Assembly: GCA_033763375.1 (NCBI GenBank) | Contig: JANRKR010000006.1 | Span: 1 to 49,217 of the forward strand | Reading direction: 5' to 3' | DNA from: Rickettsiales bacterium | GTDB taxonomy: Bacteria; Pseudomonadota; Alphaproteobacteria; Rickettsiales; UBA1997 | DNA length: 49,217 bases | Part shown: positions 3,356 to 37,261 of the stretch, one piece after another | Layout: every line of letters starts with the position of its first letter | Position numbering within the stretch: the first letter of the stretch is position 1 | Made by a program: the position numbers and the translations under genes | The notes under the pieces: generated by a model | The model's database searches: none | The model's input: the letters and a program-made list of their open reading frames with translations, nothing else | What the model was told of the DNA's origin: nothing

Positions 3356-4836
3356 TGATTTTGCATCCAGTTTATAATCGGAGTTTTAGCGGCTTTAACA
3401 TCGTCCAATCTTTTTCTTGGCGTAGAGATTGGATAATTATGAAATTTATCGCCGCGATTTTCTCTGATTTCTTCTGCGATGTAAATCATGGTGTCAATAA
3501 ATTGATCGATAGTTTCTTTGGTCTCAGTTTCAGTTGGTTCAATTAACATCGCGCCTTGAACTACAAGTGGAAAAAACACCGTCATTGGATGAATACCATA
3601 TTCAACCAAAGCCTTGGCAATATCAAGAGTGCTAATGCCTTGAGCTTTTTGTAATTTATCAGTTAGCAAGCATTCATGCATACAATTGCCTTCAAAAGGC
3701 ACGTGAAAATGATTTTTTAAGCGCGCTAAAATATAATTGGCGCTTAGAACTGAATCCTCAGCAACTTTTTGTAGACCATCAGCACCGTGTGAAAGCATGT
3801 AAGTCAAGGCACGAACGTGCATACCAAATTGTCCGTTAAAGCCTTTGACCTTGCCGCAAGTATCTTTAGGAGTTTCTAATTTATAAATATCGCCATCTTT
3901 TTTTACGTGCGGTGTTGGTAAAAATTCTGCTAATTCTTTGCGCACTGCAATTGGTCCAGAGCCAGGTCCACCGCCGCCATGTGGCGTTGAAAAAGTTTTA
4001 TGTAAATTAAAATGCATAACGTCAACACCAACATCAGCAGGACGAACTTTACCAACAATGGCATTATAATTGGCGCCATCGCAATAAAAATAAGCGCCAA
4101 CTCCATGAATTAAATCGGCAATTTCTTTGATATTTTTTTCAAATTTTCCGCAAGTATTTGGATTGGTAATCATGGTTGCAGCAATTGATTTGCCGTGCTC
4201 AGCGATTAGCTTTTTGAATAAATCCAAATCAATCAAACCTTCTTTATCAGAAGGAATAACTTTAATTTGAAAGCCACACATTGCTGCTGTTGCAGGATTT
4301 GTTCCATGTGCTGAGTCGGGAATTAAAACGATTTTTCTGGTTTGTGCTTCGCCATTTTTTTCATGAGCTTTTTTAATAACTAACATACCAGAAAACTCAC
4401 CTTGGGCGCCAGCTGCTGGAGCTAAAGAGACCGCGCCAAGTCCAGTTAAGGTTGCCAACCAATTTTGTAAATTAAACATTAATTCTAAAGCACCTTGAAC
4501 GGTTGATTGATCTTGCAGCGGATGAATATCAGCAAAGCCAGGTAAGCGAGCCATTTTTTCATTCAAACGCGGATTATGTTTCATGGTGCAAGAACCCAGA
4601 GGATAAAAGCCGGCATCAATTGAATAATTTTGATTAGAAAGACGCACGAAATGGCGAATAACTTGTGGTTCGTTGACTTGTGGCAAACCAATTTCTTGAC
4701 GATTATTTAAACCAGTACGCAAAGTGAAATTTTCAATTTCTGGCAAATCTACGCCACAAGCGCCTGTGCGCGATTGATTAATTAGAAGTTCAGTTTCGTG
4801 ACGCAGCCCGCCAATTTCTTTTGGAATAAATATCAT
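3352..4836 (-). CDS. gcvPB: glycine dehydrogenase (decarboxylating) subunit 2
   Basis: 494 aa with GSCTMKHNP and the PLP-lysine region NLHKTFSTPHGGGGPG. Length and N-terminus are typical of the split P-protein beta subunit. Confidence 0.9.
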   Translation of the reverse strand: MIFIPKEIGGLRHETELLINQSRTGACGVDLPEIENFTLRTGLNNRQEIGLPQVNEPQVIRHFVRLSNQNYSIDAGFYPLGSCTMKHNPRLNEKMARLPGFADIHPLQDQSTVQGALELMFNLQNWLATLTGLGAVSLAPAAGAQGEFSGMLVIKKAHEKNGEAQTRKIVLIPDSAHGTNPATAAMCGFQIKVIPSDKEGLIDLDLFKKLIAEHGKSIAATMITNPNTCGKFEKNIKEIADLIHGVGAYFYCDGANYNAIVGKVRPADVGVDVMHFNLHKTFSTPHGGGGPGSGPIAVRKELAEFLPTPHVKKDGDIYKLETPKDTCGKVKGFNGQFGMHVRALTYMLSHGADGLQKVAEDSVLSANYILARLKNHFHVPFEGNCMHECLLTDKLQKAQGISTLDIAKALVEYGIHPMTVFFPLVVQGAMLIEPTETETKETIDQFIDTMIYIAEEIRENRGDKFHNYPISTPRKRLDDVKAAKTPIINWMQNQ

Positions 4837-6925: not shown

Positions 6926-8178
6926 AACTTTAGCAGTTCAAATTGTATAACATCAGTTCTTTTGGCGCTAAAACCCGCGGCGCAGTAAGATAAATAAAAA
7001 CGCCATTTGCGAATAAATTCTTCACTAAAACCCAAAGCTTTTATTCGATCATGATTTTGATCAAAATTTTTAAGCCAAATTAAAAGTGTTTTAGCGTAAT
7101 CAAAACCAAAATTAGTTTCGCTTTTTATAGCAAAATTATGTTTTTTTGCTAGATCGCGAATTGTGGTTTTTGCAGGTAAAATTCCGCCCGGAAAAATATG
7201 TTTTTGAATAAAATCAACGCGATTTATATAATCTTTAAAAACCTGTTCATCGATAGTTATAATTTGTAAAACCGCAATTCCGCTGGTTTTAAGAGAATTG
7301 TTGATAGTTTGAAAATATTTATCCCAATAATCTTGTCCAACCGCTTCAAACATTTCAATTGAAACTACATTGTCGTAGACTGCTTTTTCGTCGCGATAAT
7401 CCTGCAATTTGATTTCAACTAAATTTTCAGCATTAATTTTTCTGATACGATTTTGCGCGTAAATTTTTTGCTTTGATGAAAGAGTCAAGCAAGTAACTTT
7501 ATAATTATTTTGCGAGGCAATTTCTGCAAATCCGCCCCAACCGCAGCCAATTTCAAGAATAGAATTTCCGGTTAATTTTGCTAAAATATTTTGATATTTT
7601 TGTTTTTGAGCTTTTTGTAAATCGTCATTTTGATCAATAAACAAAGCGCTGGAATAAGTCATTGATTGATCAAGCCACAATTCATAAAAATCATTACCTA
7701 AATCGTAATGCGCGGCGATATTTTTTTTGCTGCCGCGTTTGGTATTTTTAGAAAAAAAACTTTTTAAAAAAAGTAACAAAGCTTGAAATTTTCTGGCGTG
7801 AAAAAAATCTTCCAAAGCATGAGAATTAAGCGTGAAGAATGTTAATAATTCTGGCAAGTTGGAGCTTTCCCACATTTTTTGCATATAACATTCGCCTAAA
7901 GCAACATCGCCGCCAGTTATAATTGCATCAATTAAATCATAATTTTTGATTTCCATTTCCGCATTTGGTCCAAAATTTTTACCTTGAAATTCTTTGCTTG
8001 AACCATCGGGAAAAACTATTTTAAGTGAACCAAAATCAATACGGCTCAACGCTTGCCAGATAAAATCGTAGTTTTTATTTTTAATCAAATTCAAATCATG
8101 TTTGAATTTGGGCTCATTTGCAATCAAATTATTTTTTTTAAAAAGTTTAGTTTCTTGAATTATCTTGGTTAAATTCAT
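6922..8178 (-). CDS. cyclopropane-fatty-acyl-phospholipid synthase-like SAM-dependent methyltransferase
   Basis: 418 aa with HYDLGNDFYELWLDQSMTYSSALF and the SAM motif ILEIGCGWGGFAE. Confidence 0.85.
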   Translation of the reverse strand: MNLTKIIQETKLFKKNNLIANEPKFKHDLNLIKNKNYDFIWQALSRIDFGSLKIVFPDGSSKEFQGKNFGPNAEMEIKNYDLIDAIITGGDVALGECYMQKMWESSNLPELLTFFTLNSHALEDFFHARKFQALLLFLKSFFSKNTKRGSKKNIAAHYDLGNDFYELWLDQSMTYSSALFIDQNDDLQKAQKQKYQNILAKLTGNSILEIGCGWGGFAEIASQNNYKVTCLTLSSKQKIYAQNRIRKINAENLVEIKLQDYRDEKAVYDNVVSIEMFEAVGQDYWDKYFQTINNSLKTSGIAVLQIITIDEQVFKDYINRVDFIQKHIFPGGILPAKTTIRDLAKKHNFAIKSETNFGFDYAKTLLIWLKNFDQNHDRIKALGFSEEFIRKWRFYLSYCAAGFSAKRTDVIQFELLKL

Positions 8179-32027: not shown

Positions 32028-33007
32028 AAAAAATTATCGTAATTGGCGCCGGCGCCTGGGGAACTTCAATCGCTAATCTTTTGGCGCGCAATTCTCAGCA
32101 AGTTTTTTTAAACGCTAATCAACAAAAAATTATTGATGAAATTAATCACAACAACACCAATAACAGATTTTTGCCGGAAGTAAAATTAGATAAAAAAATC
32201 ACAGCAATAATTGATTTTACTGATCAAATAAAAAGTGCTGATTTGGTTTTTATTGTTACGCCAAGCGCCAATGCTACAATAATTTTTAAAAAAATTGCGG
32301 CATTAAAAATTAAAAAAACTTGTGGATTTGTAATTTGCTCAAAAGGTTTTGAACATCATTCTTTAATGCTTTTAAGCGATGCTTTTGAAAAATTTACTGG
32401 CATAAAAAATTATGCAATTTTATCTGGTCCAAATTTTGCTCTTGAGGTTGCAAATCAAGAGCCAACAATTACTACAATTGCTTCACGAAATAAAAAATTA
32501 GCCAAAGAAATAATCGCAGTTTTAAACAATGAAAATTTTCAGGCGCAATATTTCTCTGATCCGCGCACCGCAGAAATTTGCGGAATTATTAAAAATATTA
32601 TCGCCATTGGTTGTGGAATTATTGACGGTCTTAAATTGGGCGAAAATGCCAAAGCGGCTTTGGTTATGAAAGGAATTAACGAAATTCAAATTTTGTCTAA
32701 AAAATTAAAAGCCAGTGAAAACTTAAACCATGCTGCTGGTTTTGGTGATATTTTTCTTACTTGCTCATCGCCAAAATCGCGTAATTATTCACTTGGAATT
32801 CTCTTGGCGCAAGGAAAGTCATACCAGCAAATTGCCAAAGAAACTGGAAAAACTTACGAAGGTGAATTTTCAGCTGGAGCAATTTCAAAAATTGCCAAAA
32901 AACTAAAATTGCAACTAGACTTGTGCGCAAATATAAATGATATTTTAAGTCGCAAACACAGCGCCACTCAAATCAAAACTCTAATTTCAAAATCAATTTT
33001 AAGTTAA
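32024..33007 (+). CDS. gpsA: NAD(P)H-dependent glycerol-3-phosphate dehydrogenase
   Basis: 327 aa with IIVIGAGAWGTSIA, SGPNFA.EVA and NYSLG motifs. Confidence 0.9.
   Translation: MKKIIVIGAGAWGTSIANLLARNSQQVFLNANQQKIIDEINHNNTNNRFLPEVKLDKKITAIIDFTDQIKSADLVFIVTPSANATIIFKKIAALKIKKTCGFVICSKGFEHHSLMLLSDAFEKFTGIKNYAILSGPNFALEVANQEPTITTIASRNKKLAKEIIAVLNNENFQAQYFSDPRTAEICGIIKNIIAIGCGIIDGLKLGENAKAALVMKGINEIQILSKKLKASENLNHAAGFGDIFLTCSSPKSRNYSLGILLAQGKSYQQIAKETGKTYEGEFSAGAISKIAKKLKLQLDLCANINDILSRKHSATQIKTLISKSILS
32953..33007 (+). repeat. left copy of a 55-bp direct repeat (gpsA 3' end)
   Basis: A base-by-base comparison with 37303..37357 (offset exactly 4350 nt) gives 54/55 identical. Identity stops at both edges. 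Confidence 0.9.
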
Positions 33008-34098
33008 CTTCTACTCTTCCTGTTTTCTTCAATATCACTTTGGTAACCGGCCCTTTTTGCGCTTGCTTTCTTTATTATGGTATTGGGAGCTTCGCTAATA
33101 TTACCTGATTTTTGCTGCGGTTCGTTGTAGTTATCAATTTTTTGAATGACTTCTCTACTTTCTCTTGGTTTTATTATCTCAACAATATTTCTTGCTTTTT
33201 CTAACTCTCTTAGCATTCCGTCCCATAACTTTGCTTGGTGATCCAAAAATATTAATCCTCCTTCTCTGACTTGCTCAATGTGAGTCAGACTCTCTAAGCA
33301 AGCTGATTCGACAGTTTTTCTTGCCATTTTTTCGTGTTGTTTTTCAACGCTTTTATCTTCGCGTAATTGATCTTTATGAACAGTAAAAAACCTAGCAATA
33401 TTCTTATATTCTTTTGGCTCGTAATAACTCTTATAAGGGTCAAAAAAAGCTTTTCTAAAATTATCCAACATACTATCGGCAGCTAATTCGTGAGCCCAAG
33501 TATTCCCAGCGATAACAGGATATTGTCTTGTAAAAATATCTTCTTTTGCTTTTCTATATTCCTCCACTTCTGGCAGTAATACTTCTGATTTTTCCACATC
33601 GGTCATTCGGGCAACTGGATCAAGTCCAAAAACTCTTATTCCATGAATATTATGACTCTCCAACAAGAGCTGGGAATGTATCTTTTTCACATTGCCTCCG
33701 CCCATCTTATTACTTAAATTTTTGAAACCCAATACAGCTGCATCAAAGTCTCCATAGAGTACTGAAGCTCTCAGGGTTGAGGCAATTGATGGAATTTCTA
33801 ACTGAGATCTGCGAAAAAAATTATCTCTATAAATCAAAAATTGTTTTGCCGTAAATCCTTCTTTAGAGCGCTCTTCTAGATAAACAAATAAAGGATGCTT
33901 TAAAGCCTTATGCTCAGAAAACTCATGTGCAACAGGGTCTAATTTTTTTACAATTTCTTTTCTAAAATCTTCAGAAAGATAGAAACTTTTTTGGGGGTAA
34001 TAATTTCTTACTGCAATGGAAAACAGACCCGACCTTGCAATTGTTGTATTTAAACTGTTGATGGCGCGAATTCCTTTCATTGTGAATAGTAAAAACAA
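33004..34098 (-). CDS. heme-oxygenase-like fold protein (iron-containing redox enzyme / CADD-PqqC-TenA-like), disordered C-terminal tail
   Basis: 364 aa. The motif pattern is HPLFVYLEE, GGGNVKKIHSQLLLES, WAHELAADS and FFTVHKDQLREDKSVEKQHEKM, reminiscent of E/H-rich helix pairs of heme-oxygenase-like di-iron proteins. The assignment is from memory of the family pattern only. Confidence 0.4.
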   Translation of the reverse strand: MFLLFTMKGIRAINSLNTTIARSGLFSIAVRNYYPQKSFYLSEDFRKEIVKKLDPVAHEFSEHKALKHPLFVYLEERSKEGFTAKQFLIYRDNFFRRSQLEIPSIASTLRASVLYGDFDAAVLGFKNLSNKMGGGNVKKIHSQLLLESHNIHGIRVFGLDPVARMTDVEKSEVLLPEVEEYRKAKEDIFTRQYPVIAGNTWAHELAADSMLDNFRKAFFDPYKSYYEPKEYKNIARFFTVHKDQLREDKSVEKQHEKMARKTVESACLESLTHIEQVREGGLIFLDHQAKLWDGMLRELEKARNIVEIIKPRESREVIQKIDNYNEPQQKSGNISEAPNTIIKKASAKRAGYQSDIEENRKSRS

Positions 34099-34259
34099 TT
34101 AATAATCGGTGTAGTGTTGCTTGCTGGGTGTTTATTAATGAAACAACTTAACGGCCATTTTTGACTTTATTAAGAAAAAACAAGGCAAAAGAACTAATCT
34201 ACAGATTAGGTTGCGCCGCCTTCATTTACAAATTGGACTACGAGTTAATCACTAAAAAA

Positions 34260-36398
34260 ATGCCAAACCAAAACCACCTATCTCTTAAAAACTATTTTAT
34301 TTTTGTTTTAGCTACAATTTTTCTTGTGGCTTTAACAGCTTTGGTTTTGGTATTTGTTATATCAAAAAGTAATCACAAATCTCGCATCGAATTATCGCAA
34401 AAAGAAGCTGTAAATATTGAAAAAACAATTTCTGAATCATTTAGCTACTGCAACAAAATTAGCAGTTATGTTGGCAAGCAAATTGCCCAACATGGAAGCA
34501 ATGATTTACAATTTATTTTAAAAATATTTCGTCAGACAGATGAAGAAAAAAACAGAAATTCACAATTGCTTTCCTGGTCCTCTTTCGACTTTGTTGCGCC
34601 AAATAATTTGCAGTTAGTTAATGGCAAAGTTGGCGTAAGAAAAGATCCGCCAGATATGTCGGAAAGGCAATATTGCATTCGCTCTAAAGAAAAGCCTTGG
34701 AGTTTGCAGGTTTCTTTTCCGGTTTTTGGTAACCCAAGTGGATCTTGGGTAATTCCTGTGGGAACGGGAATTACTGATGATAAAGGAAAATATTTGGGAA
34801 TTATTGTCGTTGGAATTGATATTTTTGAGCTAACTGCTCTTGTTGAAAAAAGACTTATTAGTCAAAGCAGTTTCGTGGTTTTGGATGAAAATCAAAACAT
34901 TATAATTCAATCAAAAGATGCTGAAACTGATAATGAAATTTACCGCAAAAAACTTGCACAATTTAACTTCAAAGAAAAGTCGGGAATAATTTTTAAAGAC
35001 TTAACCATTGGCAAAATTAAGTATTTTTATTATCAGAAATTCGACGATTATCCCTACATTGTTTTAACTGGTTTTAATAAAGTTTTATTAGAGAAGGAAT
35101 TTAACAATTCGGTTCTGCCAATCGTTGGCGGATCAGTGATAATTACTTTTTTCTTCCTGATGATATTATACTTATTTAAGGCAAGAATTTTACTCTTGAT
35201 TAAGAAAGAAATATATTTGCAAAAGTCGCTATTAAAAAGAGACGATCTCATTAATTCTAAAACCAGACTAATTAGAGCGGTCAGTCACGATTTGAAAAAT
35301 TATATTTTTGGCATTTCCGGCCTTTCACATCTAATTTTACAGGGCAAAAACAAATCAGAAATTGAAGAAAGCGAAGATCTAAAAATGGTGGAAGAGCTAC
35401 ATCATCAATCAGAAGAATTGATGGGTTTTGTTGAAGATTTACTTGATACCAACCAAAACCAAGCTGGTGAATTTAGCTTAGGCAAAAAGCAAGTTTGCAA
35501 TGTTGTTGATCTGGTAAAGAGAATGATAATTTTAAACAAAAACTTCGCTTTAGAAAACCGTATTGATCTTGAATTTGACAATCAAACAAAGCACAAAGTA
35601 GTTAATGTTGAGTGCGATGTGCGCAGGCTGAAACAAGTCTTAAACAACATCATAAGTAACGCTGTTAAATACAGCAATTCTGGCAGTGTGGTAATTTTGC
35701 AAATTACTTTACTTGAAGAAAGCGGTGAAGTTTGCATTGCTGCAATTGATCAAGGAATTGGCATGAGCGAAGATGAAATTAAAATAGCCCTACTTGGTAA
35801 TGGAGAAAAAATTACTAAAAATGGTTTGAATAAATCTTTTGATTCCCATGGTCTTGGTATTCCGATTATCAAGAAATTAATTGAGCTGCACCGAGGAAGG
35901 CTAGAAATAAATTCCGCCAAAGGCTATGGCACCGAAATTAAAATTTATCTCGCAACTTATGACGATAATAAAAACACCCTAAATGAAGAAATTTACCAAG
36001 CTGGCAGCATCAATAATAAATTTAAAAATAAGGCGGCTCTAATTGCGGAAGATAACGCAATTACTAATAAAGTGATTACGTTTCTGCTGCGCAAAATGGG
36101 TTTTAATGTTAAGCATGTAGAAAATGGTGAAGAGATTTTAGAGCAATTGGATAAGCAGCATTTTGATTTGGTTTTTCTCGATATTAACATGCCAAAATTA
36201 GGCGGATTTGAAACGGCAAAGACGATTAGAGAAGGTAAAAACTTCAAGAGATTTAAGAATCATAACATTCCAATTATTGCGGTCAGCACAGAAAAACAGG
36301 AGCTTTCTAATCTTAAACTTCATGGCATTAATATGCTTCTTGGAAAACCATTTTCTGAAAAAGAGTTAATCGATTTTGTGATGGGGTGCATGAATTGA
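34260..36398 (+). CDS. hybrid sensor histidine kinase (TM - Cache-like periplasmic domain - TM - HisKA - HATPase_c - receiver)
   Basis: H-box RLIRAVSHDLKNY. N-box NIISNAVKYS. G-boxes DQGIGM and HGLGIPIIKKLIELHRG. The receiver has ALIAEDN, LVFLDINMPKLGG and LLGKPF. I place the start at ATG 34260 rather than the tracked TTG 34161. Confidence 0.85.
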   Translation: MPNQNHLSLKNYFIFVLATIFLVALTALVLVFVISKSNHKSRIELSQKEAVNIEKTISESFSYCNKISSYVGKQIAQHGSNDLQFILKIFRQTDEEKNRNSQLLSWSSFDFVAPNNLQLVNGKVGVRKDPPDMSERQYCIRSKEKPWSLQVSFPVFGNPSGSWVIPVGTGITDDKGKYLGIIVVGIDIFELTALVEKRLISQSSFVVLDENQNIIIQSKDAETDNEIYRKKLAQFNFKEKSGIIFKDLTIGKIKYFYYQKFDDYPYIVLTGFNKVLLEKEFNNSVLPIVGGSVIITFFFLMILYLFKARILLLIKKEIYLQKSLLKRDDLINSKTRLIRAVSHDLKNYIFGISGLSHLILQGKNKSEIEESEDLKMVEELHHQSEELMGFVEDLLDTNQNQAGEFSLGKKQVCNVVDLVKRMIILNKNFALENRIDLEFDNQTKHKVVNVECDVRRLKQVLNNIISNAVKYSNSGSVVILQITLLEESGEVCIAAIDQGIGMSEDEIKIALLGNGEKITKNGLNKSFDSHGLGIPIIKKLIELHRGRLEINSAKGYGTEIKIYLATYDDNKNTLNEEIYQAGSINNKFKNKAALIAEDNAITNKVITFLLRKMGFNVKHVENGEEILEQLDKQHFDLVFLDINMPKLGGFETAKTIREGKNFKRFKNHNIPIIAVSTEKQELSNLKLHGINMLLGKPFSEKELIDFVMGCMN

Positions 36399-37261
36399 TG
36401 AAAATTTCACTACCTATAAAATCCAAAGCACATGAATCGCGCATAAAAGAAATTGCTGAAATTATTATTAAATCGGCAAAAGACAAAATCGCTTTTTTGA
36501 TTTTATTTGGCTCTTTTGCGCGCGGTACTTGGGTTCGTTATAAATATGCTGAAATGGGCGTGGTTTATGAATACGCTTCTGATTACGATTTTTTAATTAT
36601 TACTAAAACTGGCAAACAAGCCAATGGCAACACAGCTTTTGATCTTGAGAGAAAGATTAAAAAAGCAATTGAGAACTCAACGCCAATTAGAGAAATACAT
36701 CGCAGCCATATTATTATTGAGTCGGTCAATCGCGTGAATGAAGAGCTCGAGAAATCGCAATATTTTTTCTCTGACATTAAGAAAGAAGGAATTTTGCTTT
36801 ACGATTCTGGAGAATTTGAATTGTCTAATCCAAAAGAATTTAACAAAGAGCAAAGAGAAAAAATTGCCAAACTAAATTATGAGCATTGGCTTGCCAGCGC
36901 CAACGGATTTTTGATTGATTGCGAAAGTGCCTTTAAGCGAAATGATTATAAAAGAGCCTCGTTTTATCTGCATCAAGCAACAGAAAGTCTTTACAGTTGT
37001 GCTTTATTAACCCTTGGCGGATACAAACCAAAATCTCACAATCTTGAAGAATTAAACCAGCTCTGCATTTTTTATTCTCCTGATTTCTTAACGATTTTCC
37101 CCAAAGCTATTAAAGAGCAAAAAGAATGTTTTGAGCTTTTGCAGCGGTCTTACATAGAAGCTCGTTATAGTGAATATTTCTGTATCACCAAAGCGCAATT
37201 AGAATATTTGATTGCAAAAGTTGAGGGACTGAAAGGCTTGGTTAAAAGTGTTTGTTGTTGA
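36398..37261 (+). CDS. fused nucleotidyltransferase (MNT/Pol-beta-type) - HEPN domain protein
   Basis: The N-terminal half has LFGSFARGT...SDYDFLII (GS...DxD NTase motif). The C-terminal half has KRASFYLHQATESLYSCALLTLGGYKPKSHNLEEL and SYIEARYSE, typical of the PF05168-type HEPN pattern. ATG 36398 overlaps the kinase TGA (TGATG); an in-frame GTG lies at 36386. Confidence 0.7.
   Translation: MKISLPIKSKAHESRIKEIAEIIIKSAKDKIAFLILFGSFARGTWVRYKYAEMGVVYEYASDYDFLIITKTGKQANGNTAFDLERKIKKAIENSTPIREIHRSHIIIESVNRVNEELEKSQYFFSDIKKEGILLYDSGEFELSNPKEFNKEQREKIAKLNYEHWLASANGFLIDCESAFKRNDYKRASFYLHQATESLYSCALLTLGGYKPKSHNLEELNQLCIFYSPDFLTIFPKAIKEQKECFELLQRSYIEARYSEYFCITKAQLEYLIAKVEGLKGLVKSVCC

Follow-up and report, generated by a model that had tools for sequence, protein, structure and literature searches.

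The window analysed here is a stretch of 49,217 nucleotides (contig JANRKR010000006.1 of assembly GCA_033763375.1), which makes up one entire contig of a 1.5-Mb genome (G000) in 128 contigs. It carries the gene of a Cache-type hybrid sensor histidine kinase that runs directly into a gene encoding a fused nucleotidyltransferase (NTase)-HEPN protein. The host genus is an uncultured alphaproteobacterial one, whose public relatives are freshwater metagenome-assembled genomes (MAGs). The two genes form a tight operon with a single origin of the link, which is not a chance adjacency; the link is genuine, though specific to a clade and restricted to one genus-level lineage. As to its function, we give a probability of roughly 0.5 to the reading that the NTase-HEPN protein is a toxin-antitoxin-like effector gated by the receiver domain of the kinase. 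The literature searched holds no description of a kinase-linked fusion of a minimal nucleotidyltransferase (MNT) with HEPN, and the lasting kinase partnership is the new part of the finding.

At the junction, the last letter of the kinase stop codon TGA (36396–36398) is also the first letter of the NTase-HEPN start codon ATG. Both open reading frames (ORFs) and the overlap are as described in the earlier note on this DNA, which was made from the sequence alone. The kinase start is placed at the ATG at 34260 rather than at an upstream TTG at 34161, because orthologues align from residue 1. A hybrid kinase ends at most 30 nt upstream of an NTase-HEPN gene in ten distinct contigs, i.e. the window, contigs of the congeners G021, G002 and G004, and the metagenomic contigs L110, L189, L190/191, L197, L198 and one from P0007. 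For eight further cassettes the junction was read, and here the position of the NTase-HEPN start ranges from a 1-nt overlap with the kinase stop to 30 nt behind it. The linked NTase-HEPN copies share 64–79% identity, and in a tree of 60 NTase-HEPN sequences the nine analysed form one clade (100/99), with non-linked copies as immediate outgroups. A single clade (100/100) also unites the linked kinases, with those of G058 and G022 as its sisters; G058 lacks an NTase-HEPN gene downstream of its kinase, while the G022 contig ends before that position. Clade members without a kinase were not found (0 of 10). The view that sensor kinase and NTase-HEPN protein constitute a signalling module hence holds as far as a conserved, mobile operon of single origin is concerned, but not as a property of the whole NTase-HEPN family.

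The partnership has left traces in both proteins. Among five full-length linked kinases, mean identity amounts to 72% in the sensor, 74% in the DHp domain, 68% in the ATPase domain and 86% in the receiver, and receivers of linked kinases are 63% identical to those of sister kinases without an NTase-HEPN partner. Two kinases of approximately 450 aa, at L194 (5123–6490) and L198 (633–1982), have lost the Cache domain and the transmembrane segments and possess degenerate G1 and G2 boxes, with the H-box intact; their receivers are still 85% identical to those of the full-length forms. Judging from their sequences, these proteins look like pseudokinase phosphorelay intermediates kept next to the NTase-HEPN gene. 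Since receiver identity reaches 86% and 85% within the clade versus 63% to the partnerless sisters, the receiver is the segment most strongly retained alongside NTase-HEPN, which makes it a candidate interface with this protein. On the other side of the operon, position 48 of the NTase-HEPN protein is Tyr in all nine linked copies, versus Asp or Glu in 136 of 152 non-linked ones (89%), and position 261 is Phe in nine out of nine, versus Tyr in 138 of 152 (91%). As D48Y and Y261F are clade-wide changes at conserved sites, altered regulation is suggested. The catalytic residues are unchanged in the linked clade.

The profiles named in the earlier note (PF05168, PF18765, PF01909, dCache_1, HisKA, HATPase_c and Response_reg) were all matched in Pfam searches, dCache_1 and HisKA below their cut-offs, and the proposed domain assignments of the single 287-aa NTase-HEPN chain were recovered in full: HEPN (PF05168) with 53.9 bits, Polbeta (PF18765) with 28.6 bits and NTP_transf_2 (PF01909) with 27.1 bits. 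No NCBIfam model matched this protein. The catalytic set of the NTase consists of G38-S39, D62-x-D64 and E108; across 68 homologues G38, D62 and E108 show no variation, and S39 and D64 hardly any. Invariant residues of the HEPN-T domain are H192, Q193, E196, K210, K212, H214, Y252, R256 and Y257. An AlphaFold2 model of the protein reached a pLDDT of 92.9 and a pTM of 0.89. Its HEPN half matches 4NQF, the closest solved relative (deposited as 'HEPN domain protein', molecule 'Nucleotidyltransferase'; profile E 7e-30, structure Z 23.3, root-mean-square deviation (rmsd) 1.1 Å), followed by the HEPN domain of sacsin (Z 15.2), TT1696 (Z 14.7) and AF0298 (Z 13.6), in addition to ST0689 and TM0613; Csm6, HepT and AbiV are more distant matches. 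The NTase half matches AadA (Z 11.2), both halves together match ANT(4') (Z 10.5), and HalB is a further match.

Canonical HEPN RNases carry the histidine of an Rx4-6H motif. In the window protein, the corresponding segment reads R256-Y257-S-E-Y-F261 (family consensus R-Y-x3-Y). R256 is invariant, positions R+4 to R+6 are Y-F-C, and F261 (R256+5) occupies the position of the histidine in the canonical enzymes, which bears out the previous reading that no histidine is present there. The conclusion drawn from it, namely that the HEPN domain is a non-nuclease binding module, was too quick, given the invariant H214. This residue is part of a KSHNLEEL motif in a loop between modelled helices 184–206 and 216–224 and aligns with a histidine of ST0689 and of 4NQF. 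It corresponds to the alternative-site histidine of AF0298-type HEPN-T domains, with a putative catalytic role; for these domains, Anantharaman et al. (PMC3710099) proposed a 'second strongly conserved H' as an alternative active site. Because the canonical histidine is missing, yet the Arg-Tyr pair and two histidines elsewhere in the domain do not vary, nuclease activity is here neither assumed nor dismissed.

The kinase is composed of a transmembrane segment, a periplasmic dCache domain (residues 67–269), a second transmembrane segment, a DHp domain with H343, a catalytic ATPase domain (453–564) and its own receiver (594–706). Pfam and the phosphorelay residues thus agree with the Cache-type hybrid kinase described before. 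Response_reg (72.7 bits) and HATPase_c (65.9 bits versus a cut-off of 26.4) are above their cut-offs, dCache_1 (E 7.5e-10, 39 bits) stays under its 45-bit cut-off and HisKA (E 1.9e-5, 25.0 bits) slightly under 26.9 bits. The conserved H343 lies in an SHDLKN motif, the N, G1 and G2 boxes are present as NNIISNAVKYS, DQGIGM and GLGIPI, and the receiver residues E597, D598, D641, S676/T677 and K696 are conserved in all orthologues. The kinase retains every residue needed for phosphorelay. The top-ranking NCBIfam models belong to hybrid kinases, LuxQ, TorS and ArcB among them; since all these matches fall far below the cut-offs, no orthology to any named kinase is assigned. With the multistep phosphorelay kinases of the ArcB/TorS/LuxQ/BarA type the protein shares the order of transmembrane segments, sensor, DHp, catalytic and receiver domains, all catalytic residues, as well as separate Hpt proteins elsewhere in the genome as candidate partners. 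Unlike in these systems, its operon comprises neither an Hpt nor a response regulator gene and has the NTase-HEPN gene downstream instead. The earlier statement that such genes are lacking nearby was confirmed, as the 49-kb contig encodes no other receiver or Hpt domain. The G000 genome also contains a second Cache-type hybrid kinase (contig C108, 28303–30423) of 720 aa and 41% identity, with neither a haem-oxygenase-like nor an NTase-HEPN neighbour.

Contrary to the assumption that NTase and HEPN domains rarely occur in one chain, the fusion is a common, known and mostly stand-alone family (PF05168 HEPN-T plus minimal NTase). A word-seeded protein search retrieved at least 1351 homologues, nearly all of 285–300 aa and with the same domains. 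The ESM Atlas holds many clusters, the largest with 1652 members, the JGI label for homologues is 'predicted nucleotidyltransferase/HEPN domain-containing protein', and the HEPN survey of 2013 includes an NTase fused to a PF05168 HEPN domain in its Table 1 (PMC3710099). The family is patchy and multi-copy, with 13 copies in the 1.4-Mb congener G012 and several in Megaera, Rickettsiaceae, Pirellulales and gammaproteobacterial MAGs; in some reduced genomes it looks like a proliferating selfish or defence gene. Clustering the neighbours of 184 family genes revealed no family-wide partner, including no conserved small antitoxin or regulator upstream, where only sporadic Xre-type helix-turn-helix (HTH), BrnA-like and GIY-YIG genes were seen. 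The recurrent neighbours, i.e. Fic, YhcG-type nuclease, Xre-HTH, NUDIX, BrnT/BrnA and Rep3 genes, are typical of accessory DNA, and such conflict-type contexts fit the defence-like flavour that the earlier note had suspected. Against PADLOC-DB 2.0 there was no significant component match and only weak matches in the NTase domain (PDC-S09, E 1.2e-4; 'Cyclase', E 1.8e-3). Four whole contigs of about 5.7–6.1 kb with a family member (L036, L116, L173 and L127) appear to be small circular plasmids because of terminal overlaps of 123–141 bp. L116, the annotated one among them, carries genes for a Rep3 initiator and a patatin-like phospholipase, along with a BrnT/BrnA pair and an NTase-HEPN protein 49% identical to that of the window.

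Several further members of the family are unusual in arrangement. Candidatus Megaera polyxenophila carries a tandem pair (L047, 6989–8891). A Megaera endosymbiont encodes a 633-aa member (L079, 6627–8528) with the NTase motif at 28–103 and the HEPN domain at 501–623, and the roughly 350 residues in between have no Pfam match; considered as a Rosetta-stone fusion with a receiver, this protein was rejected as an NTase-HEPN protein with a large insert. At L157, the sole candidate for an independent kinase association, a DsbA-like gene lies between kinase and NTase-HEPN gene among housekeeping genes, and this candidate was rejected too.

A plausible scenario for the operon starts from this family, whose members otherwise stand alone and are associated with conflict systems. 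A fused minimal-NTase/HEPN-T protein would have been acquired in a single event, directly downstream of a Cache-type hybrid kinase, and kept there since. It may work like a single-chain type VII toxin-antitoxin module, in which the NTase domain nucleotidylylates a protein target, either a partner or the HEPN domain of the same chain. To judge from the analogous HepT/MntA and FhepTA, the modified residue is plausibly the Tyr beside the Arg motif. The HEPN domain could then act as an RNase through the alternative His214/Arg256 site, or else be an RNA- or nucleotide-binding regulatory domain. The phosphorylation state of the adjacent receiver may gate the activity of the NTase-HEPN protein, or the receiver itself might be the target of the NTase. 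In this way, the Cache domain would let an extracytoplasmic signal that it senses switch a growth-arrest or RNA-directed effector. A bolder version, which we regard as doubtful, would be a new kind of two-component output: the phosphorylated receiver of the hybrid kinase might directly switch a single-chain MNT-HEPN enzyme of toxin-antitoxin-like character, Y261F and D48Y having replaced control by self-nucleotidylylation with phospho-control, the Cache cue would trigger RNA-directed growth arrest or defence, and the cassette would spread without a recombinase while duplicating about 55 bp of its target.

If receiver gating holds true, two-component signalling would extend to an NTase/HEPN effector. 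It is only recently that fused MNT-HEPN proteins, with HEPN domains of another subfamily, were shown to be toxin-antitoxin modules that regulate themselves. Fusions of the PF05168 type are abundant, and a clade wired behind a sensor kinase would represent a natural experiment on how such modules are controlled. The value of the case is limited by the narrow, uncultured lineage and by a plausible selfish-element alternative.

Characterized systems offer precedents for this scenario. Fused MNT-HEPN proteins are reported to auto-oligoAMPylate a Tyr next to the active motif (PMC13000451), and separate MntA/HepT pairs do likewise (PMC7641770); the conserved Tyr beside the conserved Arg of the window protein is located where these MntA-type enzymes add AMP. 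FhepTA from Shewanella (SO_1440; PMC13000451) resembles the window protein in combining an N-terminal MNT domain with a GS...DxD motif and a HEPN domain at the C-terminus in one chain of about 280 aa, and type VII HepT/MntA and FhepTA are, like the window cassette, carried by mobile DNA (PMC7641770, PMC13000451). HepT aligns structurally with the HEPN domain of the window protein at Z 8.5–9. Yet FhepTA and HepT possess a DUF86-type HEPN domain with an R-phi-xxx-H RNase motif (PMC7641770, PMC13000451), whereas the window protein is of the PF05168 type and lacks that histidine; it gives no match to PF01934 at E ≤ 0.01 and is not counted among the type VII HepT/MntA–FhepTA proteins. Furthermore, FhepTA stands alone as a gene, its regulation depending on AMPylation, redox state and oligomerization, and the available text reports no kinase partner for it. 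PMC3710099 catalogues HEPN-T plus minimal NTase proteins, with which the window protein has in common the two-domain architecture, a length of about 290 aa, the Arg-Tyr motif and an upstream conserved histidine, as well as a tendency to occur near restriction-modification or other conflict genes; unlike this family, the window clade has Phe at R+5 and Tyr at position 48. In the literature searched, the HEPN-T/NTase fusion family was not linked to histidine kinases, and no function was reported for any member.

A number of observations weigh against receiver gating. Across approximately 170 further homologous loci no kinase gene lies alongside, and outside the clade the family is kinase-free; the recurrent kinase partner expected from a neighbourhood survey was thus encountered in the ten-contig clade and not beyond it. 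The link is limited to one genus-level lineage, and the ten contexts may reflect few independent events. Y261F is not exclusive to the clade, since 12 of 152 non-linked copies show it sporadically. In the NTase-HEPN protein itself no signalling domain could be recognised, be it a receiver, an Hpt or another type. In addition, the G000 genome encodes 11 receiver domains (10 besides that of this kinase) and three Hpt domains, two of these in stand-alone ORFs of 127 and 144 aa (contigs C94 and C126); with such Hpt proteins and several response regulators the kinase would have an ordinary output route at its disposal and therefore no need of the NTase-HEPN protein. A search of sequencing runs found no RNA run with the stretch and one DNA run with 5% of the sampled words. 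Finally, should the NTase-HEPN gene be a selfish element of a toxin-antitoxin-like kind, addiction would be another way to account for its retention.

This last point leads to the strongest competing explanation, in which the NTase-HEPN gene is a single-chain toxin-antitoxin or defence gene that landed once 3' of the kinase and persists by addiction or within a mobile block, having no signalling link and at most stabilising the cassette. We consider this possible, although we would bet against it. It agrees with a stand-alone family that is spread patchily across phyla and amplified in single genomes, with members adjoining Fic, YhcG nuclease and BrnT/BrnA genes and some of them located on circular Rep3 plasmids of about 5.7 kb. 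The two nearest non-linked relatives also reside in conflict-type contexts, one between an Xre-like HTH gene and a gene for a 737-aa restriction-modification-type methylase-nuclease, the other 125 nt upstream of an AAA_21 ATPase gene, and the unchanged catalytic residues of the linked clade would be expected as well. However, addiction accounts for retention of the NTase-HEPN gene and not for that of the upstream kinase, which accompanies every one of the ten linked copies. In the very forms that lack the sensor and have degenerate ATP-lid motifs, the kinase ORF and receiver are still intact, at 85% identity, and the clade-wide changes at two conserved sites likewise fit a hitch-hiker poorly.

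Alternatively, and in our view improbably, the protein might resemble kanamycin NTase and act on an antibiotic or metabolite, its HEPN domain forming the substrate-binding lid, and be co-expressed with a kinase sensing the same compound. ANT(4')/KNTase (1KNY) and AadA/ANT(3'')(9) do combine a Pol-beta NTase domain with a following helical HEPN-like domain; the match to ANT(4') extends over both domains (217 residues), while the alignment with AadA covers 125 residues, mainly of the NTase domain. In PMC3710099 it is argued that HEPN domains fused to MNT are typically inactive substrate-binding modules. Moreover, an MFS efflux-type gene follows 8 nt downstream in G021, and the divergent haem-oxygenase-like gene hints at small-molecule chemistry. 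The identity to ANT enzymes is, however, a mere 11–14%, the domain orientation differs (two-domain rmsd >8 Å), and the HEPN domain keeps the invariant His/Arg/Tyr pattern of HEPN-T rather than that of KNTase_C, with no match to PF07827; the protein is hence not grouped with the KNTase/ANT enzymes. A genome of 1.4 Mb with 13 paralogues, and plasmid carriage beside toxin-antitoxin genes, are hard to reconcile with a detoxifying enzyme, the family being multi-copy and found in toxin-antitoxin and defence contexts, where resistance enzymes behave otherwise. The efflux neighbour is present in one of the ten contexts.

Very little credence can be given to unrelated neighbours on a recently inserted fragment, with TGATG as ordinary packing in a compact 1.5-Mb genome: many genes in the window do touch or overlap, and promoter and terminator scans, with no clear signal versus shuffled sequence (20 promoter-like sites versus 15 expected; 5 terminator-like versus 3.8), are uninformative on co-transcription of the pair, but chance is contradicted by an adjacency that is conserved in ten contigs with different flanks, at the protein identities given above and with congruent single-clade gene trees.

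The flanks indicate how the operon travels. In the window, a block of three genes (haem-oxygenase-like, kinase and NTase-HEPN) is located between gpsA and guaA and bounded by 55-bp direct repeats that match at 54 of 55 positions (Table 1). In all 27 congeners with sequence downstream of gpsA, guaA follows directly, and only G000 has the block there; it is thus an insertion specific to this genome, and direct repeats and congeners alike support the inserted islet proposed before. None of its three genes has an integrase or transposase domain in Pfam, which sets the block apart from integrative elements with their own recombinase. Among the ten contexts the flanks differ, including gpsA/guaA, mutS-LysR, purE, a kinase cluster and a transglutaminase gene. 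The closest relative, L189, contains exactly two genes bounded by 56-bp direct repeats (4645–4700 and 7925–7980) that match at 55 of 56 positions and derive from a local terminator hairpin; its nucleotide homology to the window is restricted to the two genes (80% over 3006 bp). In both repeat pairs the single mismatch is at the exact centre, i.e. position 28 of 55 in the window and 27 of 56 in L189. These sequences point to two independent insertions, in each of which some 55 bp of local sequence, unrelated between the two sites, are duplicated on either side, with an assembly effect as a possible cause. A recombinase gene is present in neither of the two blocks. In L009, L191 and L110, a search for direct repeats flanking the cassette found no pair.

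Comparison of the congeners also speaks for movement. The identities of guaA/pyrC/gpsA to G000 are 90/87/76 in G056, 88/88/74 in G002, 86/88/74 in G004 and 81/80/55 in G021, while those of kinase/NTase-HEPN are 78/73% in G021, 67/64% in G002 and 56/65% in G004, with no cassette in G056. As the order of cassette identity reverses that of the housekeeping genes, transfer within the genus is suggested. Taken together, the pair is a horizontally mobile two-gene cassette, here accompanied by the haem-oxygenase-like gene as a third.

Table 1. Features of the kinase/NTase-HEPN locus (positions in the window).
Feature	Position	Strand	Remarks
Hybrid sensor histidine kinase gene	34260..36398	+	712 aa from ATG; TGA stop
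NTase-HEPN gene	36398..37261	+	287 aa; ATG start
TGATG stop/start overlap of kinase and NTase-HEPN genes	36396..36400	+	read from sequence
Receiver domain of kinase	36039..36377	+	best-conserved segment in NTase-HEPN-linked clade
Minimal nucleotidyltransferase (Pol-beta fold) domain, residues 1–147	36398..36838	+	Pfam, invariant residues, structure matches
HEPN-T (PF05168) four-helix domain, residues 148–287	36839..37261	+	Pfam, invariant residues, structure matches
Haem-oxygenase-like (di-iron-type) protein, 364 aa, divergent from kinase	33004..34098	-	weak Haem_oxygenas_2 match, E 0.0016
Left 55-bp direct repeat, 3' end of gpsA	32953..33007	.	bounds 4.35-kb inserted block
Right 55-bp direct repeat, relic copy of gpsA 3' end, directly before guaA	37303..37357	.	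repeat comparison

The third gene has a history of its own with the kinase. A haem-oxygenase-like gene is divergently paired with kinase orthologues in G002, L110, L190/191, G058, G022, G048, G050 and G041. The pair is present on both sides of the split in the kinase tree, and the haem-oxygenase-like gene is an older and more widely conserved partner of the kinase than the NTase-HEPN gene. Further loci with this divergent pairing across the genus include L199, L200, L202, L203 and L205, at kinase identities of 40–80% and with or without an NTase-HEPN gene. At the L192–194 locus, three further kinase genes are situated upstream, one of which encodes an Hpt domain.

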